From a virus (Duplodnaviria > Caudoviricetes): a stretch of DNA of 64,000 bases. The position numbers and the translations under genes are program-made. Where the stretch lies: the IMG/VR virus record IMGVR_UViG_3300010167_000010, positions 192,001 through 256,000 of that record. One strand, given 5' to 3'. The notes below the pieces were generated by a model that saw only the letters and a list, made by a program, of their open reading frames with translations, did not search any database and was not told the DNA's origin. This document shows positions 1 to 42,272 of the stretch, piece after piece. The first letter of the stretch is position 1. Every line of letters begins with the position of its first letter.

Positions 1-693
1 CATAATTATTTGAATAATGAAGATTGTGAAAGATGGATAAAAGAATGCGGGGAAAGAAAAATTGGTGTATTTATTGCTACTGGTGAACCTTTTCTTTATT
101 GGGATTGGTTAAAAGATTTTTTTATTCCATTATGTAATAAACATAACGTTATATATTTAATATCAACGAACGGTTATTGGGGATTTGATGAAAAAATTCT
201 TCAAGAAATTATAGATTATAAAGTAACAAATATTACACTTTCTGTAGATTATTGGCATCAACAATTTATTCCATTATCTACAATATATAATATATTAAAA
301 GTTTATAAAGATACTAAATGGCCAAAAATTTTTATTTCAGTAACTTGGGATAAAGAACATCCAAAAGAAGAAGTATATTTACCACCATTTGAAAGAAATT
401 TAACTATCATAGATTTTATTAGAGTAGTAGATAGATGGGATAATGATAAAAATATTTTTACTCACGATTTTAATGGAAATATATATTTTCATAAAGATAA
501 AGTTGGGACATCTATATATGATGTCAATTTTACATTAGATAAAGATAAAGCACAATTTGGAAAGGGCCCACAAGAATATTTTTACGATTTTTATAAACGT
601 AATGATATAAAGAGGAAGTTAATTTATTATAACCAAAACAAATGTTTTGTAGATAGGAGTATAATAGAAAAATGCATAGCACAGGTGATTTAA
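1..693 (+). CDS. Radical SAM protein, type A, 5'-truncated by window edge
   Basis: Frame is open from base 1 (CAT AAT TAT TTG). Has TGEPF, ISTNGYWG and LSVDYWH motifs and is collinear with 1409-2056. The CxxxCxxC motif is presumably upstream of the window. Confidence 0.8.
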   Translation, partial: HNYLNNEDCERWIKECGERKIGVFIATGEPFLYWDWLKDFFIPLCNKHNVIYLISTNGYWGFDEKILQEIIDYKVTNITLSVDYWHQQFIPLSTIYNILKVYKDTKWPKIFISVTWDKEHPKEEVYLPPFERNLTIIDFIRVVDRWDNDKNIFTHDFNGNIYFHKDKVGTSIYDVNFTLDKDKAQFGKGPQEYFYDFYKRNDIKRKLIYYNQNKCFVDRSIIEKCIAQVI

Positions 694-1433
694 TTAAAGA
701 TTTGTATAATAAATATTTTAGTACAAATAAAATGGTGGTATTCAAAGTTACTAATAAATGTAATATTGAATGTGAACATTGTAGAGAAAACTCTGGCCCG
801 GATAGAAATGATTTACTTTCATCAGATCATATTAAAAAGGTTTTTGATCAAATTGATGATTCTTGGATAATAACTTTACAAGGTGGAGAACCTTCGCTTT
901 ATTTAGATAAGTGTAAGGAGATTATAGATATAGCTAAATCTAAAAATATTCAGACAGTTTTTTATTCTAATGGTTGGTGGGCAAACAATGAAGACATGTG
1001 TAATAAAATATTTAATCTAGATACAGATATAATAGTCATATCTATAAATAAATGGACTTCAAAAATTATTCCAATAGAAAATGCCAATACTATTGCTGAT
1101 AAAATAAAAGACTTAAAACAAACCCTTATTTATAGTGAATGTTATGAATTTAATCCAGTGTCTAAACAATACTTAAATAATGATAGTTTTGTTATTGAAT
1201 ATGAAATAGATTATAGCGGGAGAGCTAAAATGTTTACTGGTACAAGACTAGTAAGATCTCTTTGCAAAAGATCTGGTTTTACTTTAGAAACAGATGGAGA
1301 AGTTTATGGTAATTGTTGTTTTTCTAGTAATGGTTGTCATTTTGGTCATATTGATAACATAAATATAAACAATTTTTTAGAAAGAAGAAACTTAGGTGGA
1401 TCAATTAAATGTTTGGGACAAGAGAAGAATTAA
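672..1433 (+). CDS. Radical SAM protein with Twitch/SPASM-like C-terminus, type B
   Basis: CNIECEHC, GGEP, SNGWW; C-terminal CKRSGFTLETDGEVYGNCC...FGHI. Confidence 0.9.
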   Translation: MHSTGDLIKDLYNKYFSTNKMVVFKVTNKCNIECEHCRENSGPDRNDLLSSDHIKKVFDQIDDSWIITLQGGEPSLYLDKCKEIIDIAKSKNIQTVFYSNGWWANNEDMCNKIFNLDTDIIVISINKWTSKIIPIENANTIADKIKDLKQTLIYSECYEFNPVSKQYLNNDSFVIEYEIDYSGRAKMFTGTRLVRSLCKRSGFTLETDGEVYGNCCFSSNGCHFGHIDNININNFLERRNLGGSIKCLGQEKN

Positions 1434-2056
1434 CTGATCTTTTTAATTTTAATACTTCAAATAATAAATTTTGTTGTATTCTTCAAATTTCTAATAAATG
1501 TAACATAAGATGTTCTTGTTGTTATAACGAATTTTTAAGAAATTTATCTAACGCTGATGAAATTTTAAGGCCGGAGGTTTTAGAAAAAATTATTAAAACT
1601 TGCGTTGAAAGAGATATTCCTATGTACACAGGTGTAGGTGAACCGTTTGCTTGGTGGGAATATACTAGAGATATTTTAATACCAATGTTAAATAAATATA
1701 ATTCTAAATATATAATTTCTACTAACGGTCTTTGGGGAAATGATAAACAAATTATTCAAGAGGCTTTAACTTCTAATATAAAAAATATGTTTATTTCACA
1801 TGATTGGTGGCATAATCAATCTGTTCCTGTTGAATATATCAATAATATTTTAGAGGCTTTTAAAGACTCTTCTACAAAAGTTTATATAGCTTCTATTTGG
1901 AATAAAGCTCATCCTAAAGGAGAATATACTTATAAATATCATGACCAAATAGAATTTATTTGGTATGATTATGGAAATCAAGTTAATGGTAATACTATTT
2001 TGTCTCATGATAGGGAGGGTAATGTTAAAGATTATAATTTAAGAGGATTAGTTTAA
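1409..2056 (+). CDS. Short radical SAM protein, type A
   Basis: CNIRCSCC, GVGEPF, ISTNGLWG, ISHDWWH; no Cys-rich C-terminal domain. Confidence 0.88.
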   Translation: MFGTREELTDLFNFNTSNNKFCCILQISNKCNIRCSCCYNEFLRNLSNADEILRPEVLEKIIKTCVERDIPMYTGVGEPFAWWEYTRDILIPMLNKYNSKYIISTNGLWGNDKQIIQEALTSNIKNMFISHDWWHNQSVPVEYINNILEAFKDSSTKVYIASIWNKAHPKGEYTYKYHDQIEFIWYDYGNQVNGNTILSHDREGNVKDYNLRGLV

Positions 2057-2913
2057 TGGCTTTTTTAAGCAAAGAAGATTCTTTTAAAATTTATAATAAA
2101 TATGTTTTAGATAGAAGAAACATTTATATAGTTGTTTCATTAAAATGTAATTTAAGTTGCAAACATTGTAGTATGGAATCTAATTCAGATTTAACAATTA
2201 TGCCAGATAATTATATAGAAAAAATAATTAATCAAATAAATAATAAGTGGTCGGTTTGTCCTTTTGGTGGAGAACCTTTTTTATTTCCAGAAAAAATGGA
2301 AAAAATTGCAAATTTATGTTATGAAAAAAATATTTTTTTCCATTTAAATACTAACGCATTTTGGGCCTTTAATAATGATATCTTAAATCTTATTTCTAAA
2401 TTAAAACAAGTTTGTATTGGGTTATCTATTGATGAGTTTCATGAAATACCTATAGAAAATTATATACAAATTTTAGATTATTTTAAAAATAATAAAAATA
2501 TAACTTTTTGGTTAGAAACAGTAAAAAATCATGAAAATGAAGAACGTTTAGATGTTTTAAAAGAAAAAGGAATAGAATATGTTTATTTGGTAGAAAATAT
2601 AAATCCAGTTGGTTATGCAAAAAAGAATTTTAAATTTGAAAATAAAATAAGAAATATTAAAACTTGTAATAATAGAGGATTTGAAATACGACCAGATGGT
2701 CAAATTTACATTTTATGTAATTATCATAAAAATTGCAAAGTTGGCCATATTGACAACGATATTTTTGAAAATTTAAGAAATAAATATTTTCGTAGAATGC
2801 CCAAATTTTTAACATCTAAACAAATAGAATTATGTTGCTTACCTGATGAAATTCATAATAAAAAATGGGATGATCGTTTTTATATTGAAGTACTTTCTGA
2901 TTCAGTTACTTGA
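2056..2913 (+). CDS. Radical SAM protein with Twitch/SPASM-like C-terminus, type B
   Basis: CNLSCKHC, GGEPF, TNAFWA, SIDEFH; C-terminal CNNRGFEIRPDGQIYILC...VGHI. Confidence 0.9.
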   Translation: MAFLSKEDSFKIYNKYVLDRRNIYIVVSLKCNLSCKHCSMESNSDLTIMPDNYIEKIINQINNKWSVCPFGGEPFLFPEKMEKIANLCYEKNIFFHLNTNAFWAFNNDILNLISKLKQVCIGLSIDEFHEIPIENYIQILDYFKNNKNITFWLETVKNHENEERLDVLKEKGIEYVYLVENINPVGYAKKNFKFENKIRNIKTCNNRGFEIRPDGQIYILCNYHKNCKVGHIDNDIFENLRNKYFRRMPKFLTSKQIELCCLPDEIHNKKWDDRFYIEVLSDSVT

Positions 2914-3356
2914 ATTTGCTCTTTTACCTGTAATTTATGAAGTAAATTCATCAAAGTATTTAATCCAACTAAAACATCTGTACTTGCAGTAGTGTTTACT
3001 TCTCTTATGTTAGTTTGCATGTATTGTGGTGATAATTCGCGTTGTTTTTGAGCTAATTCATTTTGTTGTGCAGCTGTAAGTAATTGCATTGTTGGTGCAA
3101 CAAGTTTAGATATTAAATCATTTTTATTAGTTGCAGCTGAAGTTGTTAAAGCAATGAGTTCGGTATTCTTAAAATCTGGTAATCTTTTTCTTACTTCATT
3201 TTTAAGATCTTTTTGATAATCATCTTCATCAATAGCCATTTGAAACGTATTATTAAGAAAACTGGCAAGAGTACTTTCTATAAGTTTTACAGGTGTTGAT
3301 TTTTCTGCTATTGCATGTATTTGTTCTTCTGTTACAATTAGTTCATTATCTGCCAT
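2880..3356 (-). CDS. Hypothetical protein
   Basis: 158-aa ORF with ACTAAATA 4 nt upstream of ATG. Confidence 0.7.
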   Translation of the reverse strand: MADNELIVTEEQIHAIAEKSTPVKLIESTLASFLNNTFQMAIDEDDYQKDLKNEVRKRLPDFKNTELIALTTSAATNKNDLISKLVAPTMQLLTAAQQNELAQKQRELSPQYMQTNIREVNTTASTDVLVGLNTLMNLLHKLQVKEQIQVTESESTSI

Positions 3357-3380
3357 ATAATATTTAGTTAATCTAAATAT

Positions 3381-3677
3381 ATGATAGATATGGTCAAAAA
3401 AGAGTTCAATTTTATTGCAGATAAATTAGCATTAAATATGGATTGTTCTAAAGAAATCGATGAAACTTTACAAATTATAGTTCTCATGGCTTCCGATAAT
3501 ATAGTTGGACAATTAAATAATACAGAAACAGAAAACAAAATTAAAAATTTTATGACATATATTGTAGATATATTTAATAACACTTGTGGAAATTTTCTAG
3601 GTTCTAGATTAGAAGTTGGGATATCTAGAGACATTATGGGAAATATTAGTATATCGTTCCTTTCTATTAAGAAATAA
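3381..3677 (+). CDS. Hypothetical protein
   Basis: 98-aa ORF divergent from 2880-3356, preceded by AGTTAAT. Confidence 0.6.
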   Translation: MIDMVKKEFNFIADKLALNMDCSKEIDETLQIIVLMASDNIVGQLNNTETENKIKNFMTYIVDIFNNTCGNFLGSRLEVGISRDIMGNISISFLSIKK

Positions 3678-3708: not shown

Positions 3709-6700
3709 ATGGAACTATTTACTCCTAATTCAAAATACTATCAAAAGGTATTAGATTCTTATACTTCTTCAGATGAATTTATAGCTAACAAAAGAGTTCA
3801 TTTTAATAACGAAATTCCTCCTATAGATTTATATGATATGGTTCACTCTATGATGAGAAATGACCTTTGGAAGTGGTTTTTAGGCTCTTCGTATCTATCT
3901 TATGATATAAATTATAATGAAGCTACAAATGGTTCTGAAATTTTTGATAAAGAGGGAATGATTATGGAAGCCTCTATATCAAAACTTATGAATGGTATCA
4001 GATCTCAAGATTACGGACCAATACCTTATTACAGCCACACTAAAAATGGAACATCTCTTATAAATCCAGAATATCATAGATTAGAAATTAATGGTGTATT
4101 TTTACCTGAAGTAGATTTTATGCTTCATGAAGGATATAGATATCTTAATGTGTTATATCCAGATCATCCAGATTTTATAAATATTTTAACTACAAATGAA
4201 ATAAATGATGAAATAACTCAGGCAGCTGCATTAGTTCATTATAATCCAAATTGTATATTTTTTGATTGGCTAGCTACGGAATTAAATTTTGAATTAGATG
4301 ATTTAGATTTACCTCGTGCTGGTAGAGAAGAAGCAACTAAACTTAAAATTCGTAACTTAAAAAACAATGCTTTTAGAAGAAAACTTTATGGGGCAAAATC
4401 TGGTTATTGGCAATTTGGTAGTGAGATATTCCAACATATAACTATACATCCAGTAGCAGAATATCTTCCATTTAAACCTGTTATAAGAGAAATGTTTGCT
4501 AGATCTTTTCATGTACCTTCTAGACATATAAAATGGTTTAGTAAAATCTATAAAAAACCAGATGAATTTGTTGATAGATCTATAAATAAATTTAATTTAC
4601 TTTATAAAAAATTATTTAGACTTATAGATTGGAATAATGTTAGTTATGATTATTTAAACGAATATGTTCCACCGGAAAAAATATGGGGAACTGCATATCC
4701 AACACCTTATTCATTATATGATGTATACGAATATCCAGCTGAACGAAATGCTTATATGTCGCTATCTATTCAGAATGATTTTTATGTTGGTCAAAAAATT
4801 ACTATAAATGGAAACCCAGCCTTTATAAATGGAATGTGGTCTGAAGATTCTTATCGAGTTAAAGTTAGATTAGTTTATGAAAATGATGAACTTGTAGATC
4901 AACGTTCTTCTTGTATTCAACAAACTTTACATGAATCATTAACTAAAATTCATCTAGATAGTCCAGCATACCCAATTTATATTCCTTTTCAAGTTTATAG
5001 GGGAACTGAGTATACTTTAAATAAAATTTTAGAAATTAAAAATGAAATTAGACAAGAAAATAAAGTTATAAAAGAAAAAAATAAAGAGATAGATAATGAA
5101 GAAGAGCATTATCCATTATTAGAACGATTAGATTTAACTGATTATGAAAATGCTTTATTATCTACAAGTAACCCTTTAACTAGATCTATAAAAGAATTAT
5201 ATAAACTTCTTCCAGACCATACTATTTGTAATTTTGCTCTTAACCCATATCAAGATGGAAACTTATATTTACCTGCATCTCAATTTTTAACTTTATATCC
5301 AGAATGGTTAAATATAACTACAAATAGAGATGATATTCATAATCCATATTTAGTTTATGGTGCAACCCCAATGTCAGAAGATGGTTTTGTAAAGAAAGAA
5401 GATTTAATTATAAATGATTTAATTTATAATACTTATGTTTCTGAAATAGTTGGAATAGAACCTGGTCTTATAAAAATGAGAGTAGAGAAAGCTGAACGTC
5501 TTACTAAAACACAAACTGATATTATTGATGAGATAAATAATTTAGAAAATGCTAAATTTGGTATTATAATTCAATTTGATATTGGGAATGATTTAGTTAG
5601 AAATAAAAAAGTAGTTTTATTTGGAAAACCAAAATTTGATTATATTGCATTAGAAGGAAGAGATGATGGTTTATTTCAAATTACTTATATAACTTTTAAT
5701 ATTGTTGCTATCCCAAAAATTAAATCTCATAATTTATTAAAAGCACTTTATAGAGATTATGAAAACCAAGCTTTACATAAATTTAAAAACTTAGAAATAC
5801 TTTTTGGTGAAGAAGATGGTGAAGCAAGTGAAATATTTAAGAAAAATCATCGAAAATATAAAAACATAACTGATAATTTTGAAAATCTTAATTTTATAAG
5901 AGAAGATTATCAAACAAAGTTTAAAAATTTTAATGATAACATTTTAAGATTAAACAATAGATTTAAAAGCGAAATTTTTAGAAATGTAGAAGTAAGTGAT
6001 GGGCCGATTAGATCATTACAAACTAATTTACGTTCTTTATTAAGTAGTTTTATAAATGTTAGTAATGAATATATTACATCTAATATTGGTAATTTAGAAA
6101 ATGTTAGCTATTTTTGTGAAAGAATAAGAGTCTTAATTCAAAACTTTACATTTAATGACGCTATAACAAATGATATGGCTTTATTATATGAAGATTTAGC
6201 AAAATTAGACATAGAAATAAAAAATTTAGAAAAAGAAAATGAAACTTTAGGTGATTTAAATCAGATTATAGCTAATGCTTATGAAAATAGAAAAATAATT
6301 GAACAAATTATAGAAAAAAGAGAAATTATAATCTTATTTTTACAAGAAAAAATAAAATTAGATAACAATTTTGTATCATTTATTTCTGTTATAGATAGTT
6401 TAAATTATAATGACAATATATTTAATTTTATAGAAGAATGTAAAAAACAAGTTACTATTATAGAAACTTTTATAAATGAGTTCGAATCTAATTTCTTATT
6501 TGAACAACCACAACTTTTTAATTATTATAATGGTTTAATAACTCTTTTAAAAGACAAAATATCTTCATATGATAATCATATTATATATCTTAATGAAACT
6601 TTTAGTAATATAAAAGATTTAATTACCATAATTATAGATAATTATTATCTATCGGAAAATAAACAAAATCTCTTAAAACTTTATTTAGAAAAATTTGTTA

Positions 6701-9700
6701 AAAATGTAAATGATAATGATTTATTATTTAAAAATGTTTTATTTATAGAAGCATACAATAATTTATTATCAATAATTGAAGAATACAATAGTTATTATCT
6801 CCCATGGCTTTTCTGTGAAATTGCAATAGACTTAGACAGGGATTATTATTTAAACTTAGATTCTAATAGATTAAGTAATGAAAAGAGAATAGCTCTTAAT
6901 AATATAAATAGAATTGATTTAATTTTAGATGAATACTTACCAAATAGAGGATTTTTACTTAACCCATTACCATCTGATATTTATATGCGAACAACTGATG
7001 ATGAATTATCTTCTTATTCTTTATTGAATCATCAAGACAGATTTATTGGTACATTATCTATATCATTAGATAAATTTAATGAATTTTTAGAATATAAAAT
7101 TGAAGAATTATACGGAACAGAAGGAGTTATAGAAGATTATACTTTTGGTTCATTAAATACAGCTTCTATTGTAAATAATAATTTAGATATTATTAAACCA
7201 TCAGGAGATTTTTTCGAATCAATAGACACATCAGATAATTCTAATATTTTAGAATTATCTAATTATATTAAAAAATATGAATTGGAAAAATATCATTATT
7301 TAACTTTAAATAAAGATATTATAAAAATTGTAGATAGAACTAATAACAGAAGATTTTCTTTTGCTGTTGCTGGTTTCTTAGAATTATTTTTACCATACGA
7401 AAAAAGAAATAATTTTAGAGGCGAAGCATTTGTTCATAATAGAATAGAGATAAGAGGAATAACTACAGCTGGATCAAAAATTATAGATTTTATTGATGAT
7501 GAGTCTAGATTTAGAATGGCAGCATTATCAACAGGTGATGAAGTTATAGGACCAACAATAGAAAATGACATATTTATTGAAGCTATAAATAACGTTAGAC
7601 ATTTTATTACAGTAAGTGAACCATTAAATGTAACTGGAGATTTTGTTTTAACTTTCTTAACTAAAATGAATTTACATGCTAAAGATATAAGTAAAAACTT
7701 TTTTAGATACAGAAGAGAATTGTCTCGAAATGAACTTATAGATACTGGTTCTATATTAGATCATTATGCTTATGGTGCTGAAGGGTCAAAATATCCATTT
7801 ATATCTAGTGGTTTTGTAAATAGTGTTGTAGATACTTCAAAATATAAAGAAATAACTTTAAAGCATTTAAGAGAACAATCAGTATATAGACGTTTTTTTG
7901 AACAACACGTTTGGGATTTACACAATTTTGGTGAAGATTCAATGACACATTATACTATACCATCTGTAATAAATTCTAGTGGAGATTTATTTTTAGAAGT
8001 TGGTGCTTATAAAACTTATAAAGAATTAAATAGAGATAAACAGAATTATTTAACAGACGGAAATGGAACTTTTAAATTTACAAAAGATCGAGAATATATA
8101 ATGAAAAAAGAAATTCTAGATTATTTCCAAGATTATTTACTAGAACTTTCTAGAGCTTCTGATAAAATAAATATTGGTGTAAATATAAATGCATTTACAC
8201 ATTCAAACGGTACAATATCTCAAATTCCAGATGCAAAATATTCTGATCCAAATATTGACTTAAGATTTTTTACTTATGGTTGGACAGATCAAACAATGCC
8301 TTATTATGTTGATATTGGTATTGGAAAATTAGACGAGTTTTCTAGAACAGGACCAGTTGATGCACAAGCTAAAACATATGAACCTAGATCTTTTTGGAAT
8401 CATGATGTATATGATAATACTTATTTAACAAAATATAAAGATTTAAAATATCAATCTGAAAAAGGAGCATTATCTTATCAAGAATTAAAAGAACAGGGAA
8501 TTGATTTAAGAAAAGCTGATAGATCATTATGGGGAAAGAAAACATTTGAAATAAATAATGAAGCTGATGTTGATCCAATTTATAGTATTCATAGACCAAT
8601 AATGAGAGTTTATCTTGGCGAATATGAAGTTCAAAAATCTATAACATTTGATAATCATTTAACTAGAAGATATACAACTGTTCAATTTTCAGTTATAAAA
8701 CAAGTATTTAAAAATCTTGTTAAAATGAATGAAGAAAAATTAAAAATAGTAAATAAAAAGTTTTTTGAATTAAATATTTTTAGAAATATTTCTTTAAATA
8801 ATTTGAGAACAGTAGATGAAAATGGTGATGATTTACATGTAATTGTTGAAGGACAATATCTTAATTTTAAATATGAGGGTGTTTGGGTGCCAAGAGCTCA
8901 ATTTTATGAAAATAGAAATCAATATTATATACAATACCCACCTCCTCCAACAGATGCTAATAACATTTATTATTATTCTATTGCAGAAAGAATTCAATTA
9001 GTAGCTGTTATAGATGATCAAAATTATGGTGAAAATTCTGATATATACGAAACTACTGAAAGAACTTTTGAAACTGGAACTATTATAGTTTATGAAGATG
9101 AAAAATGGGTTGTAAAAGATTTTATATTCTCAGGTGTTTATGGTGATCAGGTCGCATTAGAAAATATTATGGTAAAGCCAGAAGGTGAAGAAGCCAGAGC
9201 AATAATTGCTAATGCTTATCCAGTATCTAATAATGATGGTTTCTTTACTAATCCAAAAATTACTACTAATAATGATGGTATTGAAGTTTCTACTATTGTA
9301 GAAGAATTAACTCTTAAACATAGATTACTTTTAAAATTACTTATAAATTTAGGTTTATTTACTGGATCAATAGCTAGAACACAATGTTATTCAGTAAAAG
9401 AATTATTAAGTATATATAATACTATCTTCACCCATAAAGAAGATTTAGAAATTATAACTGAAAAATTAAAAGAAGAAATTTTATTAAGAGTAAGAGAAGA
9501 ATTAGAATTAGAAGCACCAGATTTAACTGAAGAAGAATTTGAAGAAGAAATAATTAAAAGATTTGAAATAGAAATTGCTAAAGAAGAATTTGATTTAGAA
9601 ATACAGAGAAGATTTAGAGAAAAAGTTTTAGGAACTGATTATAATATAAACGATACTCAAATAGTAATGTTTCCTAGATCGTTCTCTAATGAATTTACTA

Positions 9701-12700
9701 ATGTTATTTCTAAAAATAATGTTTATTGGTTTAATTATGCTTTTGGGTTTGATTTATTACACGATTGTTTAATAACTCCTGGACAAAATATAGCATTAAT
9801 TTATTTAGAAAACGATTTTAAAATTATTTTATTAAATGAAAATAAATTTACATTTTTAATAGATTCAGCAAGAAAAATAAGAATTAATGAATACGAATAT
9901 TTCTTCTTTATTGGAAAATATGGTTATACAAGTTATCAAAGTGGAAATAATTTAATAACTAAGGATATATTCTTATTTGAAAAAATAGAAAAATATACTA
10001 ATGTTATAGATTTAAAATATAAAAACTTACTTAAAGGTTCAGTAGATATTAAAGTAGCGGTAATTCCACATTTTACAGTAGAGGGTTATCCTTATGATGA
10101 AAATAATGAATTAAAGTATGATGAAAATAATAATCTTGTTGAAGATATTTATGATATAACTCAAGATAATATTTATTATGATAATTTTAACGATAAACTT
10201 TATTCTTTTAATACTATTCATAATGAAAGAATAAAATTTGCTATTAAGCAAGAAGATAATTTATATTTTAAAAATTTATTATTTATATATGGCCAATATC
10301 AAAAATTAGGTGCAACCGTTGGTGGTCAGTTTGTAAATCAAGGTGTTATAACTCCAATTACTGGAATTAGATTTGATGCTGATACAGCTAGTTTATTTGA
10401 TAGAATATTAGAATTAGAACAAATAAATATTCGTTCCCAATTTAATGTAAACTTAGAATCTACTTTATTTTCTTCATATTGTAATATTGAAGGGATAATG
10501 AAAGGCATTTATATTAAAGATAGAAATGCTATAGATGATACTGATGTTTATATTAGCGTAAATTATAGAGACGATAGAGAACCAATTATTACTTCTAATA
10601 AATTAAGATTTTCTACTGAAATACAAAAATTAATGCCAGTCAGAACTTATAATAATGTAACTCAAAATTTCCCAGAATCTATAATAGATTTTGCTGATGC
10701 TAAATGGCCAGATGAACAAAAAATATATCCACCTATTATTCAGTGGGTTGATGTTACAAAATCTATATCAACTGATACAGACTCAATGGCTTTTAAATAT
10801 TTCAAAAATATGTTAGTATTAGAAGGTGAAATAAATATTTATCAACCTAATACTATAAATTTTGGAAAAAATACTAAATTAGCTGATTCATTAAATAATG
10901 TAAAAATAAGTGACGTTATAAATTCTATAGTTGGTATTTCTAATGTAAATACTACATCATATAATAATTATACTTTAACCAATTCTAGTTTTAATATTAA
11001 GTTTATAGATTTTAATAAAAATATAATGATCTTTGTAGCTGATAACGCTATTGGATTAAAATATGTAAAATCGTTACAAGGTTTAGAAAAAGAAGTAGAA
11101 TTAGATGTGCAGTTTGCTGTTCCTAATTTTACAACCGGAACAACTGTGGACTCTTTAACTTGGGATGAAAATATAGATAAATGGGTTATTAGTGTTTCTA
11201 ATCCAAACGGTACTTCTGAAATGTATTCTATTACAGTTTCATCTGAAAATAATTTAACTATAACTCATTCAGATTATTTTATTGAAGAAATATATAATGA
11301 AAAAGGTATTGATATAAATACTTATCAATTTGTAACTATAAAAGATAAAGATTTTGGTGATAATAGATGGGATAATCATAAAACAGTTTTAGCAAGAGAT
11401 GTTTCATTTATTTCAGTACCGATAAGAGATGTACAAAAAGAAACTTTCTTTGCCCCAGAAAATTTTTCTACTTCAAGTAATTTACAATTAAGTAATTCAT
11501 TAGGAAATCCATTAGGTTGGCCTGGTTTAAGAATTTCTGGTAATAGTGGTGTTATTCAAAGTAGAACAAGAATTAATGTTCCTGCAAATGATTATAAAGT
11601 ATTAAGTTTTTCTGTTAAAAAATTAGAAGGAACTGCTGGTGCTCTTATGTCAGCTAATTCTATATCTATCGGTATTCAGACACCTTCATTTAATACTCCA
11701 GCTGATATAGATCAAATTTGGGTATACGATAAAGTTATTCAACGATGGGTTGTTACTGATAATACTCAAGATTTTTATAATTTTATTTCAAATTATAATT
11801 CTACTGAAATTGCAAATGTAGTTACTTATTTAGTCGGCCATGAGTTTGGTAGATATTATGATGTTACAAATAGAGATAGTATTTTTGGTGGACAATTTTT
11901 ATGGAGATTACCAAGACCAGATGTTAATGAAAATATAATAGTTGCTGCTGTAGTTTGTAGACAAAATATAACTAATGTAACTTTAGAAATAACAGTAAAT
12001 AATGATGGAACTACTGGAATAGGACAATTTGATATATTAAATATGTTTGTTTCTACAAAGAAAGAAGTTATAACACATAATAGAACTATAACTAAACAAA
12101 TCTTTGGTGGGTTTCCGCAAGAAGGTATTTCAGAAGAAAACTTTCCCGGAACTATAACGGAGGCCGCGCCATTCTTTATTGGTGAAAGACCAGCTAATGA
12201 TATTTATAACGATAATATTTATGAAGAGGGCCCTTATAATCCTTTAATTAGAAGTGATGATACTTCTATAGAATATCTTTATGAAAAATTTAGAGCTAGA
12301 AGATGGGTAGATTATAATATATTTGATAATCAAGTTATTATTATTGGTTCAACTATATTCTTTTATACTCCAACAAATTATTATTCTCCAATAGCAAATG
12401 GGGAAGAACACTTAAATCTCGATTTAATAACTTCAGAAGGAAGAGACGTATTAGTACCAACTGGAGTAACAGAAGAAAATCATTGGAAGCGCGCTGAATT
12501 ACCTTCTGTATTTAATGGTACATATCAATTATTTAATGAGATGACATTAGATGAAGCATATACTTTAGTTAATGATCAAAGAGATATTACTTTAGCTCAA
12601 ATAACAGCAATTGCAAACGCGGCAAGAGAGGGAATGGATGCTGATTCTCAAAACGCCATCAGTATAGTTTATAAAGCTATTTCTGATTGGATAACTGCAC

Positions 12701-15700
12701 ATCCAGTACAATATTATCCAACAGATGAACTATGTCCAATAGATATTATTGAAAATGATATTACTTTTATTTATAATGAAAAAGGTAAAATACCTAGATT
12801 CTTTGAAAATAATAGTGGTTATCATGAAAAATGGAGATCATCTCAAGAAGTAAAATTTGAATTAGGTTTAACTACTTCTGTTTATTTAACTCGACAAAAT
12901 TATTTAAGATACTTAGCAGATTATTTTTCAGTAATTTGTGGTGCACAAAGATACATTTATTATTTTGAGCCAGGTGGAATAAAAGATGTTAAATTAACTA
13001 ATGCTCAACTTATTATACAAAATATTTATGATGATATTATTTCATTCCCATTAAATAAAGCAACTTGTAGAGATGAAATTGAAAATTATAATAACTGGCA
13101 TATTAGTAATATGGCGCCAGAATATGTATTTAATTCTACAGAAACTTCTTTTGAAACTAGAACGGTAATGGTTGGAAATGATACATTTACTATTGATTCA
13201 TTCCCAGTTCAAAAACCTCGAAAAGCTTTTGAAATAATGGGTAAATACATAAATAATAATGTTCAAATATATGCCGGCTATGTAATGGCTAATGAAGATG
13301 TATTAAATGTTTATAATAAATTTGGGGCCCAGGGACCTAATCCAGATTGGTCACAATTAGAACATATTATTAGATTATTCCCAAATAGAATTAAATTAAA
13401 TGGTGAATTTAATAATCCAAGTACTTCATTTATAGTATTTGGAAAAAAATATCCAGCAATATTTTATAGTGATAATAATGGACAATCATTTAATCAAGTT
13501 AGAATACCAACAAATGCTATTACTAAAAGCTCACATGACTATGAAAATAATGCGTCAGCTGATCCCCCAGATATTTGGTGTGATTCAGTTTATAAAATTG
13601 GAAATAAAATAAATGTAATATATAAATCTCCTTCTTCATCTGCTAGTGCTAATATTTTAGGTTATACTACATTTACTATAAATGAACAGGAAACAAATTC
13701 TTTAATGGCTTTTGATGGGGAAAATTTTATTTATACAGCAACTGATTTAGAAAATATTACTATAAATAATTTAGCGAATTCTTGGAAAAACTTTAATATT
13801 AATTTCTTAAATGGTGTTTTAGTAGCAAGAGACCATGTATTTCCACATTATATTGCTAATCCTGGACATAGATTTTTATTAGAAGATCAGTATAATCTAA
13901 TGCCATTATCTGGAGAACAACGAATTATAGAAATTGGTGATGATTTTATCAGATACACTAATGCAGTTGATCCAGCTGATAATGAAGAAATATTAAGAGT
14001 ATTAGTATCAATAGACCAAACTGAACTTATAGAAAATCCAACAATCTATCTCGATTATAAAGAAGAATATTTAGATTCTAATGGTTATCTTTTAGTTAAT
14101 CATATTAAAGAAGTTGATGATCCTACACAAGCTAATAGATTATATTCTCCTCGTGAAGCTATGGTTTTAAGACACCCAAGTGATGCTGATTTAAGTAATG
14201 TTTATCAACGAGAAGTTTTACCAATAAGAGGTATTCCAGCTATTTCAGAAGATGCTGGGAGATCTATTTACAGATATCATGATCCAATTGTAGATTCAAA
14301 AGGTAATGAAATATATAAATATATTGAAGCAATAAACTTTAATAATCAAACAATTTATTTATGTCAAGCTAATGGGAATTATCTCGTATTCAGAGACTCT
14401 TCTTCTAATCATAATTATTTTACATTAGAAACATTAATAAAGGAAAATATAGATTATCAAACTTTAGTTCCTGCGCCTGTTTTAGTTCCAGGTTTTAAAG
14501 CTGAGGAACATGACATATTTGGTGATTTATTAAATGATTTAGATAATAAACAAATTCAATTTTTAGATTTTGATGGTTCTAATCCAAAATTATTTATTAG
14601 TTTACCAGATATTAAAACAGTAATAGATTATCTTGTTAGTGAAGAAGATGACGAAAAACGATTATTATATAAATGGGCTTATAATTCAGACCCATCTTGG
14701 GTAGGAACACCTGTCGGTTATGTATTAGATATAAATAAAGTAGATGACGAAGGTAGAACACAATCATTTATATTAAATCCATTTAGAATTGGTGAAGATT
14801 TTATTAGAGCTGTAGATTCTGTAGAACAATTTGAAGGACCTTTTGGACCAATTTATGGTAAAAGATTATCTTCAAGATTTGCTCCATTTAGATGGAAAGA
14901 TGAATATTATGTTTACGATTTAGTAACTTCAACATTATTATTAAAAGAAAATAATAATTTCTATATGAATATTTCTATGCCATATCAATTTGCAAACGGA
15001 CAAATATCTTATGATAATATAACTTTTGAATGGGCTAATCATAAACGAAGAAGTGATGATACTGAATTCGAATATATAGAACCAATCGAAGATTTACAAC
15101 AATTTAACGGTATTTATATAAAACCTCGTGGTTATGGTGGGTCAATGCATAATGAAAACTTTATTTATGAAAGACCAGAACTTATAGATTATAGAGCATT
15201 TGAAAGAAAACTTGTAGAAAATAAATTTGAAGAATATATTTATTTAAATGATAGAAATGGAAATAAATATAATTCTAAAAATGGATTATTCTGGTTATCA
15301 ACTAATAACGATGTTAAAATAAATTATAATAATCTTATCAATAAAGTAAATAAAGTTAAATTTTATCCAGATGCAATTGGTTATGAAGGTAATGAAACCC
15401 ATCCAGATGGATTATATACTGAATATAATGTTTTCAAATTAGAGCAAGCACCAATAGAAGTATATACACCAAAAAATACTATTTGGTTTAATTCACCAAC
15501 TATTAGACAACCCGTAACAACGCAATCAGATTCTGGCCCAGAAATTTTACATTCTTCTGGAAGACATCAAATATTATTAACTTTATTTAGAATAATAAAA
15601 GCTGGTTTAACTGTAAACGAATCCTTAATTTCTGAATACGAAATTGAAATAAGAGATTATAGAAATAGACCAATTAGATTACCAGAAGGAACTTCTATTA

Positions 15701-17724
15701 TTTACGAAAATGGTAGATTATTATTTTTATATGATGATACGTTTATATATTCAGAAGAAAATCTTCCAGTATTTGACCACGATTTAATTAGAGTATTTAT
15801 TAAAGATGAGAATGGTCAAACATTTAATTATGATTTAAATGTTGCTCCAAAAGAAGAAACAGAAATTGGAAAAATATTAAATATAAATAGAATAGAGTTC
15901 GATAAAGAAGAATTATATCACTTAAATACTATTACAATAAATTTTGATGGTAGATCATTAAAATTTAGAGATAATAATGAACCTTCTTATTTTATATCTA
16001 TAGATTATACAACTAGAGAATTTATTAGATGGGAAAATAATGCTAATCAATTATTAGATTTTGAAGTTCAACTTATTGCAATAGATTATGAACAAGCAAC
16101 TAGATTTATGACTATAAATTCTCATTACGAATTTAAATTAGATGTTAGAAACTTTCATCTAGAATTATTACTAAATAGATCTTGGGCAACTACTATTAGT
16201 AACTTAAATGAAGTTCAATGTAGAATATATTCTAAAGATCAGCTTGTTTATAACCCAAATAGTACTACAAATTATTTAACAGGTCAATTACATTTTGAAT
16301 TTGATAGACAAAGAATTAGATTTGTATCTAATTATGTTAACTTAATAGAAAGTATTAAAGTTATAAATGAAATATTTGTAGATAATATAAATTTAGAAAA
16401 ATGGGTATATGTTGTAGATCAAAACGGCGAATATGAATTTAAACATACATCATTAATTATTGTTGATGGTCTTTATGGAAATATTTTATTAAATAAACCA
16501 GCATATAGAAACTTTAGAGATTTAGTAGACAAGTTAGATAATATAATTGAATATAAAGAAAGAAGAATTATTGAAACTTTTAATGGAAGAGTATTTAATG
16601 AAATTGTAAGTATTGCACCTAATTTTTCTAATATGAAATTAGGTAATTTAATAAATTACGATAAAGTAGATTTAAATACTGGTGATATTTTCTTTATTAA
16701 AATGAAATTACTCCCATTAAACACAATATATCCTCAATTAAAAACTTTAAATCATCCTGATTATATTTATCCAGTAAGTACGGTTGAAGCTAGACTTTAT
16801 GGTTTTGATAGAATATTTATTAATGAAAATTCATACGTTCCACCACCAATTACTATAAATAATATAATGTATAATTCTGAATCTTTACCATTATATTATA
16901 CAAATAATTGGCTTAACAAAGATGGTTTTATGATTTATTTAGCTGATAATGAAGGAAGATTTACTAGACCAACTGTTAGAAATAGAAGAGTAGAGTTTGA
17001 TGTATTAGGAAATGAATTAGGTGATTGTAGGGCTGATATTTATGGTAATATAGATCCTAGATTTAATCCATTAGAACCATTATATAAATCTTCAATAGAT
17101 TGGTTCAAATCAGAATTCTATATTGAAGGAAAAGAAATTAATCCATTTATTGTAAATATAAATATAAAAGATGTTTATGATGAAAAATTAAAAGACTTTG
17201 TACCTTCTGTAAATTTAACATCTCCAACAAAATTTGGTAATGATTTTATTCAACAAGAAGTAAGTAAATCTTATTTAACTAAAGTTGATAATTCTTTATT
17301 ATATCGTTATTGTAGAATAGAAGACGATTTAATTCAAAATTCTAAATTAGATATTATAGAACACAATAATGGTTTAATAAATTTAATTGTACAAGGTCCT
17401 TATGATACTTATCAATTTGAACAACATAAGTTTTTGTTTGGAATAAAATATTTTAATACGTTCTCAAGTATTGGTCCTTATAGATCAATATGGACTTCAA
17501 CTGTAGAACTTGAAAATAAAATAGATTTATCTTTTTATCTAAATACTAGAGAAAATATATTAGATAAGAATAATAGAGATTTTGGTGTTGTAGATATTAC
17601 TGAAATGGGATTATTTAATCAACGTGGTGAATTAGTTGCTTATATGACACACCCAATTGCTCAGTATCGCTCAGATACGCAGCATATTAGTTATAACTTA
17701 ATTGTAGAAGAAGTAGGTGCATAA
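3709..17724 (+). CDS. Giant (4671 aa) baseplate wedge / tail-associated structural protein
   Basis: C-terminal ITEMGLFNQRGELVAY resembles the (I)TE/REVGLF...G.LIA motif of baseplate and tail-collar proteins; Asp-box-like YSDNNGQSF; coiled-coil stretches; late-type motif upstream. Confidence 0.7.
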   Translation: MELFTPNSKYYQKVLDSYTSSDEFIANKRVHFNNEIPPIDLYDMVHSMMRNDLWKWFLGSSYLSYDINYNEATNGSEIFDKEGMIMEASISKLMNGIRSQDYGPIPYYSHTKNGTSLINPEYHRLEINGVFLPEVDFMLHEGYRYLNVLYPDHPDFINILTTNEINDEITQAAALVHYNPNCIFFDWLATELNFELDDLDLPRAGREEATKLKIRNLKNNAFRRKLYGAKSGYWQFGSEIFQHITIHPVAEYLPFKPVIREMFARSFHVPSRHIKWFSKIYKKPDEFVDRSINKFNLLYKKLFRLIDWNNVSYDYLNEYVPPEKIWGTAYPTPYSLYDVYEYPAERNAYMSLSIQNDFYVGQKITINGNPAFINGMWSEDSYRVKVRLVYENDELVDQRSSCIQQTLHESLTKIHLDSPAYPIYIPFQVYRGTEYTLNKILEIKNEIRQENKVIKEKNKEIDNEEEHYPLLERLDLTDYENALLSTSNPLTRSIKELYKLLPDHTICNFALNPYQDGNLYLPASQFLTLYPEWLNITTNRDDIHNPYLVYGATPMSEDGFVKKEDLIINDLIYNTYVSEIVGIEPGLIKMRVEKAERLTKTQTDIIDEINNLENAKFGIIIQFDIGNDLVRNKKVVLFGKPKFDYIALEGRDDGLFQITYITFNIVAIPKIKSHNLLKALYRDYENQALHKFKNLEILFGEEDGEASEIFKKNHRKYKNITDNFENLNFIREDYQTKFKNFNDNILRLNNRFKSEIFRNVEVSDGPIRSLQTNLRSLLSSFINVSNEYITSNIGNLENVSYFCERIRVLIQNFTFNDAITNDMALLYEDLAKLDIEIKNLEKENETLGDLNQIIANAYENRKIIEQIIEKREIIILFLQEKIKLDNNFVSFISVIDSLNYNDNIFNFIEECKKQVTIIETFINEFESNFLFEQPQLFNYYNGLITLLKDKISSYDNHIIYLNETFSNIKDLITIIIDNYYLSENKQNLLKLYLEKFVKNVNDNDLLFKNVLFIEAYNNLLSIIEEYNSYYLPWLFCEIAIDLDRDYYLNLDSNRLSNEKRIALNNINRIDLILDEYLPNRGFLLNPLPSDIYMRTTDDELSSYSLLNHQDRFIGTLSISLDKFNEFLEYKIEELYGTEGVIEDYTFGSLNTASIVNNNLDIIKPSGDFFESIDTSDNSNILELSNYIKKYELEKYHYLTLNKDIIKIVDRTNNRRFSFAVAGFLELFLPYEKRNNFRGEAFVHNRIEIRGITTAGSKIIDFIDDESRFRMAALSTGDEVIGPTIENDIFIEAINNVRHFITVSEPLNVTGDFVLTFLTKMNLHAKDISKNFFRYRRELSRNELIDTGSILDHYAYGAEGSKYPFISSGFVNSVVDTSKYKEITLKHLREQSVYRRFFEQHVWDLHNFGEDSMTHYTIPSVINSSGDLFLEVGAYKTYKELNRDKQNYLTDGNGTFKFTKDREYIMKKEILDYFQDYLLELSRASDKINIGVNINAFTHSNGTISQIPDAKYSDPNIDLRFFTYGWTDQTMPYYVDIGIGKLDEFSRTGPVDAQAKTYEPRSFWNHDVYDNTYLTKYKDLKYQSEKGALSYQELKEQGIDLRKADRSLWGKKTFEINNEADVDPIYSIHRPIMRVYLGEYEVQKSITFDNHLTRRYTTVQFSVIKQVFKNLVKMNEEKLKIVNKKFFELNIFRNISLNNLRTVDENGDDLHVIVEGQYLNFKYEGVWVPRAQFYENRNQYYIQYPPPPTDANNIYYYSIAERIQLVAVIDDQNYGENSDIYETTERTFETGTIIVYEDEKWVVKDFIFSGVYGDQVALENIMVKPEGEEARAIIANAYPVSNNDGFFTNPKITTNNDGIEVSTIVEELTLKHRLLLKLLINLGLFTGSIARTQCYSVKELLSIYNTIFTHKEDLEIITEKLKEEILLRVREELELEAPDLTEEEFEEEIIKRFEIEIAKEEFDLEIQRRFREKVLGTDYNINDTQIVMFPRSFSNEFTNVISKNNVYWFNYAFGFDLLHDCLITPGQNIALIYLENDFKIILLNENKFTFLIDSARKIRINEYEYFFFIGKYGYTSYQSGNNLITKDIFLFEKIEKYTNVIDLKYKNLLKGSVDIKVAVIPHFTVEGYPYDENNELKYDENNNLVEDIYDITQDNIYYDNFNDKLYSFNTIHNERIKFAIKQEDNLYFKNLLFIYGQYQKLGATVGGQFVNQGVITPITGIRFDADTASLFDRILELEQINIRSQFNVNLESTLFSSYCNIEGIMKGIYIKDRNAIDDTDVYISVNYRDDREPIITSNKLRFSTEIQKLMPVRTYNNVTQNFPESIIDFADAKWPDEQKIYPPIIQWVDVTKSISTDTDSMAFKYFKNMLVLEGEINIYQPNTINFGKNTKLADSLNNVKISDVINSIVGISNVNTTSYNNYTLTNSSFNIKFIDFNKNIMIFVADNAIGLKYVKSLQGLEKEVELDVQFAVPNFTTGTTVDSLTWDENIDKWVISVSNPNGTSEMYSITVSSENNLTITHSDYFIEEIYNEKGIDINTYQFVTIKDKDFGDNRWDNHKTVLARDVSFISVPIRDVQKETFFAPENFSTSSNLQLSNSLGNPLGWPGLRISGNSGVIQSRTRINVPANDYKVLSFSVKKLEGTAGALMSANSISIGIQTPSFNTPADIDQIWVYDKVIQRWVVTDNTQDFYNFISNYNSTEIANVVTYLVGHEFGRYYDVTNRDSIFGGQFLWRLPRPDVNENIIVAAVVCRQNITNVTLEITVNNDGTTGIGQFDILNMFVSTKKEVITHNRTITKQIFGGFPQEGISEENFPGTITEAAPFFIGERPANDIYNDNIYEEGPYNPLIRSDDTSIEYLYEKFRARRWVDYNIFDNQVIIIGSTIFFYTPTNYYSPIANGEEHLNLDLITSEGRDVLVPTGVTEENHWKRAELPSVFNGTYQLFNEMTLDEAYTLVNDQRDITLAQITAIANAAREGMDADSQNAISIVYKAISDWITAHPVQYYPTDELCPIDIIENDITFIYNEKGKIPRFFENNSGYHEKWRSSQEVKFELGLTTSVYLTRQNYLRYLADYFSVICGAQRYIYYFEPGGIKDVKLTNAQLIIQNIYDDIISFPLNKATCRDEIENYNNWHISNMAPEYVFNSTETSFETRTVMVGNDTFTIDSFPVQKPRKAFEIMGKYINNNVQIYAGYVMANEDVLNVYNKFGAQGPNPDWSQLEHIIRLFPNRIKLNGEFNNPSTSFIVFGKKYPAIFYSDNNGQSFNQVRIPTNAITKSSHDYENNASADPPDIWCDSVYKIGNKINVIYKSPSSSASANILGYTTFTINEQETNSLMAFDGENFIYTATDLENITINNLANSWKNFNINFLNGVLVARDHVFPHYIANPGHRFLLEDQYNLMPLSGEQRIIEIGDDFIRYTNAVDPADNEEILRVLVSIDQTELIENPTIYLDYKEEYLDSNGYLLVNHIKEVDDPTQANRLYSPREAMVLRHPSDADLSNVYQREVLPIRGIPAISEDAGRSIYRYHDPIVDSKGNEIYKYIEAINFNNQTIYLCQANGNYLVFRDSSSNHNYFTLETLIKENIDYQTLVPAPVLVPGFKAEEHDIFGDLLNDLDNKQIQFLDFDGSNPKLFISLPDIKTVIDYLVSEEDDEKRLLYKWAYNSDPSWVGTPVGYVLDINKVDDEGRTQSFILNPFRIGEDFIRAVDSVEQFEGPFGPIYGKRLSSRFAPFRWKDEYYVYDLVTSTLLLKENNNFYMNISMPYQFANGQISYDNITFEWANHKRRSDDTEFEYIEPIEDLQQFNGIYIKPRGYGGSMHNENFIYERPELIDYRAFERKLVENKFEEYIYLNDRNGNKYNSKNGLFWLSTNNDVKINYNNLINKVNKVKFYPDAIGYEGNETHPDGLYTEYNVFKLEQAPIEVYTPKNTIWFNSPTIRQPVTTQSDSGPEILHSSGRHQILLTLFRIIKAGLTVNESLISEYEIEIRDYRNRPIRLPEGTSIIYENGRLLFLYDDTFIYSEENLPVFDHDLIRVFIKDENGQTFNYDLNVAPKEETEIGKILNINRIEFDKEELYHLNTITINFDGRSLKFRDNNEPSYFISIDYTTREFIRWENNANQLLDFEVQLIAIDYEQATRFMTINSHYEFKLDVRNFHLELLLNRSWATTISNLNEVQCRIYSKDQLVYNPNSTTNYLTGQLHFEFDRQRIRFVSNYVNLIESIKVINEIFVDNINLEKWVYVVDQNGEYEFKHTSLIIVDGLYGNILLNKPAYRNFRDLVDKLDNIIEYKERRIIETFNGRVFNEIVSIAPNFSNMKLGNLINYDKVDLNTGDIFFIKMKLLPLNTIYPQLKTLNHPDYIYPVSTVEARLYGFDRIFINENSYVPPPITINNIMYNSESLPLYYTNNWLNKDGFMIYLADNEGRFTRPTVRNRRVEFDVLGNELGDCRADIYGNIDPRFNPLEPLYKSSIDWFKSEFYIEGKEINPFIVNINIKDVYDEKLKDFVPSVNLTSPTKFGNDFIQQEVSKSYLTKVDNSLLYRYCRIEDDLIQNSKLDIIEHNNGLINLIVQGPYDTYQFEQHKFLFGIKYFNTFSSIGPYRSIWTSTVELENKIDLSFYLNTRENILDKNNRDFGVVDITEMGLFNQRGELVAYMTHPIAQYRSDTQHISYNLIVEEVGA

Positions 17725-40123: not shown

Positions 40124-42272
40124 ATTACTTTCTCTAAATATAGAGAATTTTATGAACATAAAATCTGCCCAATTTGACTTTGATAAAAATATTATTATTT
40201 TAAGTGGTAAAAGTGGGCAAGGTAAATCAGCTGTATTTGACGCGATAGCTTTATGTATTTCTCAAAAGAAACGATCATCAACATATTCAGAATATGTAAA
40301 ACAAGGTTGTACCCATTCTAAAATTGTGCTTGATTGTATTATAAATAATGAATCAGTAAATTTTAATCTTCAAATAAATTTAATAAGAGGAACTCCTTAT
40401 CAAATGGAGTTAACTTATAAAGGAGAAAAATATCATAATACTGAAGCTGATGCAATATTAAAATCTTTTGATATAGAATATTATAGTGATATAATTTTTT
40501 CAATGCAATCAGACGATTATAGAGATATAACACAATTAAGTCCAACACAACGATCTCATTATTTACAACGATTATTAAATTTTGATTTTCAAAAACAGAA
40601 AGAAAAAATAAATAAAAGTTTAGAAGAGTTTAAAATTCAATTAACTAAAATTTCTACTGATATTTCTATTAAAGAACAATTTATAAAAAGAGAAAATGAA
40701 GAAAAAGAAGATTTGATAGAAATAATTTTAACAGATTCTGATATTAAAAAGTTACAAAATAGAATAATAGAAAAACAAGAAAAAATAAATTTATATCAAA
40801 AAAATCAAAACCAAGTTAATGAATTAAACAGTCAGAATAATAAAATATCTAATGAAATTTTACAATTAAATTTAAATAAAAATAAAATAAAGAATAAAAT
40901 AAATTTAATAAAAGAAAAAAAAGAACAATTTGAAGAAACAGAAAAAAAACTTATCAATACAAATAGTGAAATATTATCTTTAGAAACTAAAATTGAAGAT
41001 TTAATAAATCGTTTAGAAAAAAATGAATCGAGTGCATTTGAAGATAGGCAGGTCGAGTTTGAAGCAGCTAGACACATAACTTATTATAACAAACTTTTAA
41101 ACGAATACAAAAATTATGCTGTTTTAGAAGAACAAGATAAATGCCCAATGTGTGGTCAACAATTACAAGAACATTTACAAGAAGAATATAAAAGAATATT
41201 TTTAAATAAAGAAGATTATATTCACGGCTCAGGAAATGAAACTTTTACTGGTTCTACATTTAAAGAAAAAGTAGAAAGTATAACAGAATTATTACAAAAA
41301 TATACTACAGAAAAAGCTGAATATGAACTTAAAAAAGAATTACATCTTACACTAAATACTACACACGAAAAAGATAGAATAATTTCTGTTACTAAATTAG
41401 AAAAATTAAAAGAAGAAAAAATTATATTAGAAAAACAATTAAAAATTATAGAAGATAATTTTGATGATTCTTTAGATTTAGATTCAGAATTAAAAGTTAT
41501 AACTACTGAAATAAGTAATAAAAATAAAAAATTAGAAGAAATAGAAAAAGAAATAAATAATTTTAAAGTAGAAGATGTTACTCTTTTATCTAATGAAATA
41601 GTAAATGATACTAACATTATAAATAAATATTTTTCTGATCTTAAGATTAATGAGGATATTAAAAAACGAAATGATAAAAGATTAGAAAATATCAAATTAT
41701 TTGGAAGAGAGATAGAAAAGTTTAATTCTGAATCTAAAAATATAATTTCTGAACAAAATGTTTATGAGGATGCTCTTAATATATTAGAAAAAACTTTACC
41801 AAATTATATGGTAGTAAAGACATGCTCATCTTTACAAACAGAAATGAATACTTTTATTCAATCTATTTTTCCAAATTATGAAGTTCAATTAATCAATTCT
41901 AAAAAAGGATGCGAATTTTTTTATACTAAAGATAATACTATTGTAGAAAATACTAAGAAAAGAAATAATGCTTGGATAAATTCTAAAATGAGTTCAGGTT
42001 TTGAAAAAGCTCTTTTAACTACTTCGTTTAAAGTATCTCTTGCACAATTATATGGAATAAATATATTTATTGGGGATGAATTAGATGGAGCAGCTGATGA
42101 TGAATCTTCTGAAAAGTTTTTTGAAGAGCTTATAACTAATAATAATTTTGATCAATTATTTTTAATATCACATAAAAAGTTTATATGTCAACTTATTTCA
42201 GATAATGCTGAAAATAGTATTATATATACGGCTAATCAAGGAAAATTTACTATTACAGAAAATATTGATTAG
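40116..42272 (+). CDS. SbcC/Rad50/gp46-like recombination ATPase
   Basis: GKSGQGKS, long coiled coil with CPMC hook, SSGFEK signature, GDELDG, ISH. Confidence 0.92.
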   Translation: MIKLLSLNIENFMNIKSAQFDFDKNIIILSGKSGQGKSAVFDAIALCISQKKRSSTYSEYVKQGCTHSKIVLDCIINNESVNFNLQINLIRGTPYQMELTYKGEKYHNTEADAILKSFDIEYYSDIIFSMQSDDYRDITQLSPTQRSHYLQRLLNFDFQKQKEKINKSLEEFKIQLTKISTDISIKEQFIKRENEEKEDLIEIILTDSDIKKLQNRIIEKQEKINLYQKNQNQVNELNSQNNKISNEILQLNLNKNKIKNKINLIKEKKEQFEETEKKLINTNSEILSLETKIEDLINRLEKNESSAFEDRQVEFEAARHITYYNKLLNEYKNYAVLEEQDKCPMCGQQLQEHLQEEYKRIFLNKEDYIHGSGNETFTGSTFKEKVESITELLQKYTTEKAEYELKKELHLTLNTTHEKDRIISVTKLEKLKEEKIILEKQLKIIEDNFDDSLDLDSELKVITTEISNKNKKLEEIEKEINNFKVEDVTLLSNEIVNDTNIINKYFSDLKINEDIKKRNDKRLENIKLFGREIEKFNSESKNIISEQNVYEDALNILEKTLPNYMVVKTCSSLQTEMNTFIQSIFPNYEVQLINSKKGCEFFYTKDNTIVENTKKRNNAWINSKMSSGFEKALLTTSFKVSLAQLYGINIFIGDELDGAADDESSEKFFEELITNNNFDQLFLISHKKFICQLISDNAENSIIYTANQGKFTITENID

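Follow-up and report, generated by a model that had tools for sequence, protein, structure and literature searches.

What does a phage do with a contiguous run of radical S-adenosylmethionine (radical SAM) genes that has no visible substrate gene among them? The question is raised by the left edge of the stretch of DNA analysed here (the window), 64,000 nucleotides that correspond to bases 192001–256000 of IMGVR_UViG_3300010167_000010, the 329,018-bp record of an uncultured jumbo phage (hereafter G0) with direct terminal repeats and a GC content of about 25%. A reading of the sequence alone had noticed four overlapping radical SAM open reading frames (ORFs) at this edge, and they are indeed present on the plus strand, at window positions 1–693 (ORF1, here A1), 672–1433 (ORF2, B1), 1409–2056 (ORF3, A2) and 2056–2913 (ORF4, B2). 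The suspicion that the array continues to the left of the window also proved correct. Inspection of the upstream contig shows that the window edge splits a cassette of seven radical SAM genes: the start of A1 lies 135 nt to the left of the edge (genome 191866–192693, 275 aa), preceded by R3 on the same strand (genome 190880–191866, 328 aa) and by R2 (genome 189946–190857, 303 aa) and R1 (genome 188738–189949, 403 aa) on the minus strand. We propose, with a probability of roughly 45%, that this cassette, built on the scaffold of the Bacillus subtilis enzyme EpeE, is a multi-enzyme set for late tailoring whose target is a polypeptide with its gene elsewhere in the genome.

The assignment of the four ORFs to the radical SAM superfamily holds. 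The PF04055 profile matched full-length A1 at 43.9 bits (31.2 bits for the fragment inside the window), B1 at 44.8 bits and B2 at 47.5 bits; A2 scored 27.9 bits, just below the 29.5-bit cut-off, and passed that of Fer4_12 (24.2 bits against 22). All four ORFs, full-length A1 included, carry CxxxCxxC (CxxxCxCC in A1), and the alignments show a GGE-type SAM-binding motif, which reads GGEP or GGEA in the B type and xGEP or xGDP in the A type. The SPASM domain that had been considered alongside the core did not materialize: there was no match to PF13186, and the second auxiliary-cluster motif, CxxCx5Cx3C, is not in the alignment. The division into two paralogue types is real. In pairwise blastp comparisons, ORF1 and ORF3 (39% identity, E 5e-37) and ORF2 and ORF4 (32% identity, E 6e-28) are far closer to each other than the A-versus-B cross pairs, which reach E-values of 1e-7 to 1e-13 only, and every sequence motif that the sequence-only reading had quoted for the two types was found in the alignments.

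The two types differ in the C-terminal twitch region. The twitch-like tail expected for ORF2 and ORF4 is there, in the form of a C-x10-G-x5-C hairpin with two more conserved cysteines, as in enzymes with a single auxiliary cluster; in B1 numbering, C198 and C215 do not vary, and C222 and C247 hardly vary. Judged from these residues, the B types (R2, R3, B1 and B2) are predicted to keep the architecture of EpeE, namely a radical SAM cluster and one auxiliary [4Fe-4S] cluster in a twitch domain. B1 (253 aa) has a C215–C216 pair after the hairpin, and B2 (285 aa) has one cysteine in that region. ORF1 and ORF3 lack C-terminal cysteines, as had been stated. Their motif FTHDxxGNI aligns with the twitch hairpin of the B type, GFxxxxDGxxY, and the cysteines on either side are gone; A2 (215 aa) terminates just past its degenerate hairpin (HDREGN). 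Auxiliary-cluster cysteines are absent from all 15 A proteins aligned, A1 among them. The SAM-cluster motif is intact in 14 of the 15, so the A proteins probably act as enzymes themselves. We interpret the A type as a derived lineage of the B type that has kept the SAM motif and the twitch hairpin and has lost the auxiliary-cluster cysteines.

Radical SAM peptide epimerases belong to bacterial pathways for peptides that are made on the ribosome and modified after translation (RiPPs), in which one enzyme is paired with one small precursor. EpeE, also called YydG (PDB 8AI1–8AI6), is the member to which the phage enzymes come closest. A profile of the B type searched against PDB sequences matched EpeE with an E-value of 2e-23 over positions 12–275 of 284, and the runner-up, CteB, reached 3e-14 over the N-terminal part only; the A-type profile matched EpeE at 9e-15 over the N-terminal half. 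The AlphaFold model of B1 (pLDDT 91.5) has EpeE as its top Foldseek match (E 2e-14, TM score 0.73), followed by SkfB at 2e-7. For the model of A1 (pLDDT 89.6) the best fold match is again EpeE (Z 16.3, EpeE residues −1 to 251), and viperin-like enzymes form the second-best fold class (Z 13.8). The N-terminal CxxxCxxC and an S-x-D-x-x-H strand motif are common to EpeE and the phage enzymes. EpeE abstracts a Cα hydrogen, Cys223 returns the hydrogen, and a single auxiliary cluster is held in an extended twitch domain (PMC13012085). By both HMMER and MAFFT, C223 of EpeE falls in the invariant cysteine column of the B type (C215 in B1), where the residue may be either a cluster ligand or the hydrogen donor; a second cysteine right beside it, comparable to the C222–C223 pair of EpeE, is confined to the B1 group. 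The two systems differ in the arrangement of the auxiliary-cluster cysteines, which in EpeE is unlike that of the B type, in the absence of the cluster from the A type and in number, with one bacterial enzyme against seven phage-borne paralogues.

When the G0 paralogues and the orthologues on related contigs are placed in a maximum-likelihood tree rooted with YydG-like proteins, a single phage clade (94/93) is recovered, whose constituent groups are all firm: A, B1, B2, R2, R3 and a lone paralogue about 40 kb into the genome. The A clade (100/99) is divided into A1 and A2, and the B2 group is equally firm (100/99), but the branching order among the A, B1, B2, R2, R3 and 40-kb groups is without support. 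The predicted grouping of ORF1 with ORF3 is therefore recovered, and a sister relationship of B1 and B2 is not; in the approximately unbiased (AU) test, B1 plus B2 as a clade is neither rejected nor supported (p 0.44). On the evidence of the sequences and the predicted folds, the six cassette genes other than R1, together with the 40.8-kb paralogue, appear to be a phage-restricted radiation with EpeE/YydG as its closest characterized relative. The A family is tiny: of 5.8 billion proteins, about 16 belong to it, every one from an array of this kind. With the B-type profile, 59 representatives are recovered at E <1e-30 and 5259 at E <1e-10 among 1.84 billion. Close relatives with a readable context are all on phage-like contigs.

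Gene order in these relatives indicates that the cassette is old. Locus L005 (41% GC) has R2, a gene for a glycoside-pentoside-hexuronide:cation (GPH) symporter, two copies each of R3 and A1, then B1, A2 and B2, so that the order R3-A1-B1-A2-B2 is preserved, and subsets of it (R3-A1-B1, B1-A2-B2, A2 with B1) are found in other relatives. A 17-kb contig from ENA carries R1, R2, R3, A1, B1 and A2, with B2 absent; L007 and L008 (261-kb contig) carry R3, A1, an unrelated 201-aa gene and B1; L012 carries B1, A2 and B2, followed by a homologue of the gene next to B2 in G0; and L010, which also lacks B2, carries A2, a GPH symporter gene and B1. The order is thus maintained over a range of 22–41% GC. 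The gene between A1 and B1 in L007 and L008 (201/205 aa) was considered as a further component and rejected as not cassette-specific, its homologue in G0 being 110 kb distant. B1 is the paralogue found in nearly all related loci, and a B-type gene accompanies the A gene at every A-bearing locus. The recurrent neighbours are R3 with A1 and B1 with A2, not A1 with B1 or A2 with B2; orthologues of A2 adjoin B1-type genes in L005, L012, L010 and the ENA contig. This co-occurrence and order fit a functional partnership or pathway of A and B enzymes and do not single out an A1-B1/A2-B2 unit, so that the duplicated two-gene unit proposed from the sequence alone is neither supported nor rejected. From these alignments and trees, A1, A2, B1, B2, R2 and R3 each appear to be an old, separate orthologous group kept across divergent phages, and because each paralogue is a separate conserved group, the set most likely tailors in several steps or at several sites and is not a collection of redundant copies.

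Other searches for relatives returned little. Neither A2 nor B2 had a tblastn match among GenBank phages, single-sequence scans of IMG/VR found no relative, a profile scan of IMG/VR gave distant N-terminal matches only, which were not used, and the ESM Atlas look-alikes of A1 were generic viral radical SAM clusters only. The literature search turned up no publication about phage arrays of EpeE-like enzymes. Four metagenomic proteins of 1107–1324 aa (P0060, P0073, P0083 and P0116) consist of three to four fused radical SAM domains each, one of them YydG-like, and such polypeptides are a precedent for several radical SAM modules working as one unit.

R1 is of a different kind. It has a strong radical SAM core (PF04055, 72.8 bits) and a weak B12-binding domain (PF02310, 16.9 bits against a cut-off of 32.1). 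Its top NCBIfam matches are B12-binding radical SAM families, at 35–49 bits and far under their cut-offs, and against the PDB its matches are confined to generic methylthiotransferase and B12-binding radical SAM cores. Directly upstream of R1 are a 371-aa ORF (genome 187376–188491) and an overlapping 97-aa ORF (188430–188723), which may be one gene joined via a frameshift; L005 conserves both, with 70% and 48% identity, respectively. A PF04055 scan of the genome found 12 radical SAM genes in total, seven of them contiguous. The other five are a second B12-type gene (genome 12397–13683), the lone EpeE-like paralogue of the same family as the cassette enzymes (40798–41652), two orphans with no NCBIfam match (121038–122246 and 176977–177849) and an NrdG-like activase (278740–279501).

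The genes of the cassette overlap or abut (1–25 nt), with a gap of 22 nt between R2 and R3, and this leaves no space for a precursor gene inside it. The absence of a visible precursor peptide, already remarked upon from the sequence, thus stands: there is no such ORF within the cassette block and no small ORF adjacent to its genes. To the right, the 158-aa gene p158 (window 2880–3356, minus strand) is convergent with B2 and overlaps it by 34 nt; L012 has a homologue of it beside its own B2 orthologue (51% identity by tblastn, E 3e-37). Beyond it on the plus strand is a 4671-aa ORF (window 3709–17724), mentioned here for context as a candidate substrate or virion protein. A giant gene close to the array had been described as structural; the gene is there, but the label finds no backing in Pfam or PHROG, in which the ORF has no match, and tblastn did not detect it in the related loci. 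Pfam and PHROG were likewise silent for p158, its neighbour p98, the 371-aa and 97-aa genes upstream of R1 and the 201-aa insert of L008. No convincing candidate with a Ser/Cys-rich tail was found in G0.

Part of the cassette appears to share a promoter class with other genes of G0. The sequence ACTAAATA(A/T)TATG directly precedes the start codons of R2, R3, p158 and p98, and its variants stand ahead of 35 ORFs genome-wide, 21 of which have the exact 13-mer, for which the chance expectation is about 0.02 per 64 kb. Back-to-back CTAAATA promoter-like motifs occupy window positions 3357–3380, directly before the start codons of p158 and p98, and a like arrangement is found between R2 and R3 (genome 190858–190879), making two divergent pairs 22–24 nt apart. 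The spacing between motif and start codon, with almost no 5' leader, suggests leaderless or near-leaderless transcripts from one class of promoter. The start motif is also found ahead of a baseplate-wedge homologue and ahead of a 776-aa protein (window 46695–49025, plus strand) with a match to a glycosyltransferase PHROG (E 1e-23). Among more distant arrays, L037 and L039 adjoin baseplate-wedge homologues, and L038 adjoins a gene for a protein longer than 2100 aa as well as Gp10_C tail genes.

From these observations we infer the following course of events. The chemistry of the cassette is most likely a combination of epimerization-type C–H chemistry and B12-type methylation. Each enzyme would cleave SAM to give a 5'-deoxyadenosyl radical, which would take a hydrogen from Cα or from another unactivated C–H position of a polypeptide. 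The substrate radical would then be quenched, in the B type by the loop cysteine, with epimerization or a related change as the outcome, and R1 would contribute a methyl group. The substrate would be a late-made protein or peptide encoded outside the cassette, possibly a protein of the tail or baseplate region.

Two known systems resemble this arrangement in part. In proteusin maturation, epimerase-type radical SAM enzymes occur alongside a B12-binding radical SAM enzyme, PoyB and PoyC being the B12-dependent radical SAM C-methyltransferases of that pathway. Here, however, specific homology to PoyD was not demonstrated, and a gene for a nitrile-hydratase-like leader peptide is absent. The proteusin epimerases PoyD and OspD resemble the A type in having no twitch auxiliary cluster (PMC13012085). 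The His-Xaa-Ser system also has adjacent radical SAM paralogues, HxsB and HxsC, of which only one has a SPASM-type domain, but matches of the phage enzymes to TIGR03978/TIGR03977 amount to 25–35 bits against cut-offs of 268–370, and HxsA/HxsD-like genes are absent.

Several observations weigh against late tailoring of a polypeptide by EpeE-like enzymes. The YydG equivalog model TIGR04078 is matched at 32–53 bits against a cut-off of 300 and in its N-terminal half only, which places the phage enzymes outside the YydG equivalog definition, as a sister radiation. Asp210 of EpeE, the proposed proton relay (PMC13012085), aligns with a conserved glycine in the B type. In or beside the cassette there is no precursor (EpeX/YydF-like or other), no leader-recognition domain, no protease such as EpeP and no epe/yyd-type exporter such as EpeAB. 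The label 'late' depends on the single baseplate homologue with the start motif, and a search of G0 for the Gp23 capsid protein (PF07068) gave no match, its controls being likewise silent. By tblastn the 4671-aa ORF has no match in the giant ORFs that flank the L037 and L038 arrays, and several related cassettes sit amid replication and nucleotide genes rather than virion genes. Finally, GPH symporters (TIGR00792) are encoded within the cassettes of L005 (6052–7293, minus strand, E 1e-62), where the gene occupies the position of R1 in G0, and L010 (6521–7666, minus strand, E 5e-21), and the distant array P0035 lies beside genes for a GT2 glycosyltransferase and a carbamoyltransferase.

The last two findings are indicative of a sugar-like substrate, and they are the core of a somewhat unlikely alternative in which the cassette tailors a glycoside, sugar nucleotide or glycan by epimerization, dehydrogenation or methylation, the product perhaps ending up on the virion or on DNA. 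The symporter genes lie inside the radical SAM cluster of two relatives at two different positions, P0035 also has a kinase-like gene at its side, the 776-aa glycosyltransferase of G0 follows the same start motif as the cassette, and twitch radical SAM enzymes that act on sugars exist, with BtrN and BlsE among the fold matches of B1. However, the similarity to EpeE, in sequence and in fold, exceeds that to BtrN and BlsE by at least seven orders of magnitude, no MFS_2 gene was found in G0, and there is no sugar enzyme in or beside its cassette. A role in modifying nucleotides or the DNA of the phage, through viperin-like chemistry, hypermodification or the supply of modified precursors, is quite improbable. 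Related cassettes do adjoin genes for dUTPase and for nucleoside phosphorylase-like and methyltransferase-like proteins as well as for ligase, NrdD, topoisomerase and the clamp loader, and a thymidylate-synthase-like gene is near the P0035 array; in the fold comparison of A1, viperin-like enzymes come second to EpeE, as noted above. Jumbo phages, however, have mosaic gene neighbourhoods, the viperin model of NCBIfam (NF038283), with its cut-off of 180 bits, is matched at 20–51 bits and in the N-terminal core only, and over the full length EpeE matches clearly better.

A further alternative concerns the organization of the cassette rather than its substrate: A and B would form an obligate heterodimer, the array would stem from a duplicated A-B pair, and either the cluster-less A would depend on B or B on A. 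The constant presence of a B-type gene beside A speaks for such a pairing, as do the smallest sets, A2 plus B1 in L010 and an R3-like enzyme plus an A-like protein in L013, the overlaps of 1–25 nt at all junctions and the restriction of the small A family to such arrays. The A-like protein of L013 (272 aa, L013:5331–6149, plus strand), which follows the R3-like enzyme, has lost CxxxCxxC, in keeping with the role of a non-catalytic partner, and is a probable pseudo-radical-SAM protein. However, the motif is intact in the other A proteins, B1 and B2 are not recovered as sisters, and the recurring neighbours are those named above. The stoichiometry also varies, with B2 missing in two relatives and R3 and A1 doubled in L005, and tandem radical SAM paralogues elsewhere usually act in sequence, which likewise counts against the heterodimer. 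A prediction of the B1–A2 complex returned a score of 0.00, which counts neither for nor against binding. On balance we regard an obligate heterodimer as unlikely, and late tailoring of a polypeptide by a set of EpeE-like enzymes is retained as the preferred reading.

The contigs that carry related arrays have further genes of interest in their own right. L010 encodes FlaA, a spirochaete flagellar sheath protein (2878–3594, plus strand), and L005 has an inserted GIY-YIG/NUMOD3 homing-endonuclease gene immediately downstream of its B2 orthologue (13223–13984, minus strand). Topoisomerase I domains of the eukaryotic type (Topoisom_I_N, Topoisom_I) are encoded in L012 (4554–6188, plus strand) and L039 (17860–18780, minus strand), with a homologue in G0 at approximately 273280–274182.

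For the biology of these viruses, the cassette means that a virus keeps up to seven diverged radical SAM copies in a fixed order, with no visible precursor and with a subfamily of its own that is devoid of the auxiliary cluster. The set of A and B enzymes is a compact natural experiment on the purpose of the twitch cluster. If the substrates are sugars or nucleotides, the chemistry accessible from the EpeE scaffold would be wider than that of peptide epimerization. With phage proteins as the substrates, the cassette would be the first example in viruses of radical, irreversible protein tailoring. In a more specific and unlikely form of that idea, this clade of jumbo phages would, late in infection, furnish virion or baseplate proteins of its own with D-amino acids, C-methyl groups or cross-links; if true, six EpeE-like enzymes and a B12-type enzyme would make up a system for virion 'hardening' or host range of a kind undescribed for any virus.

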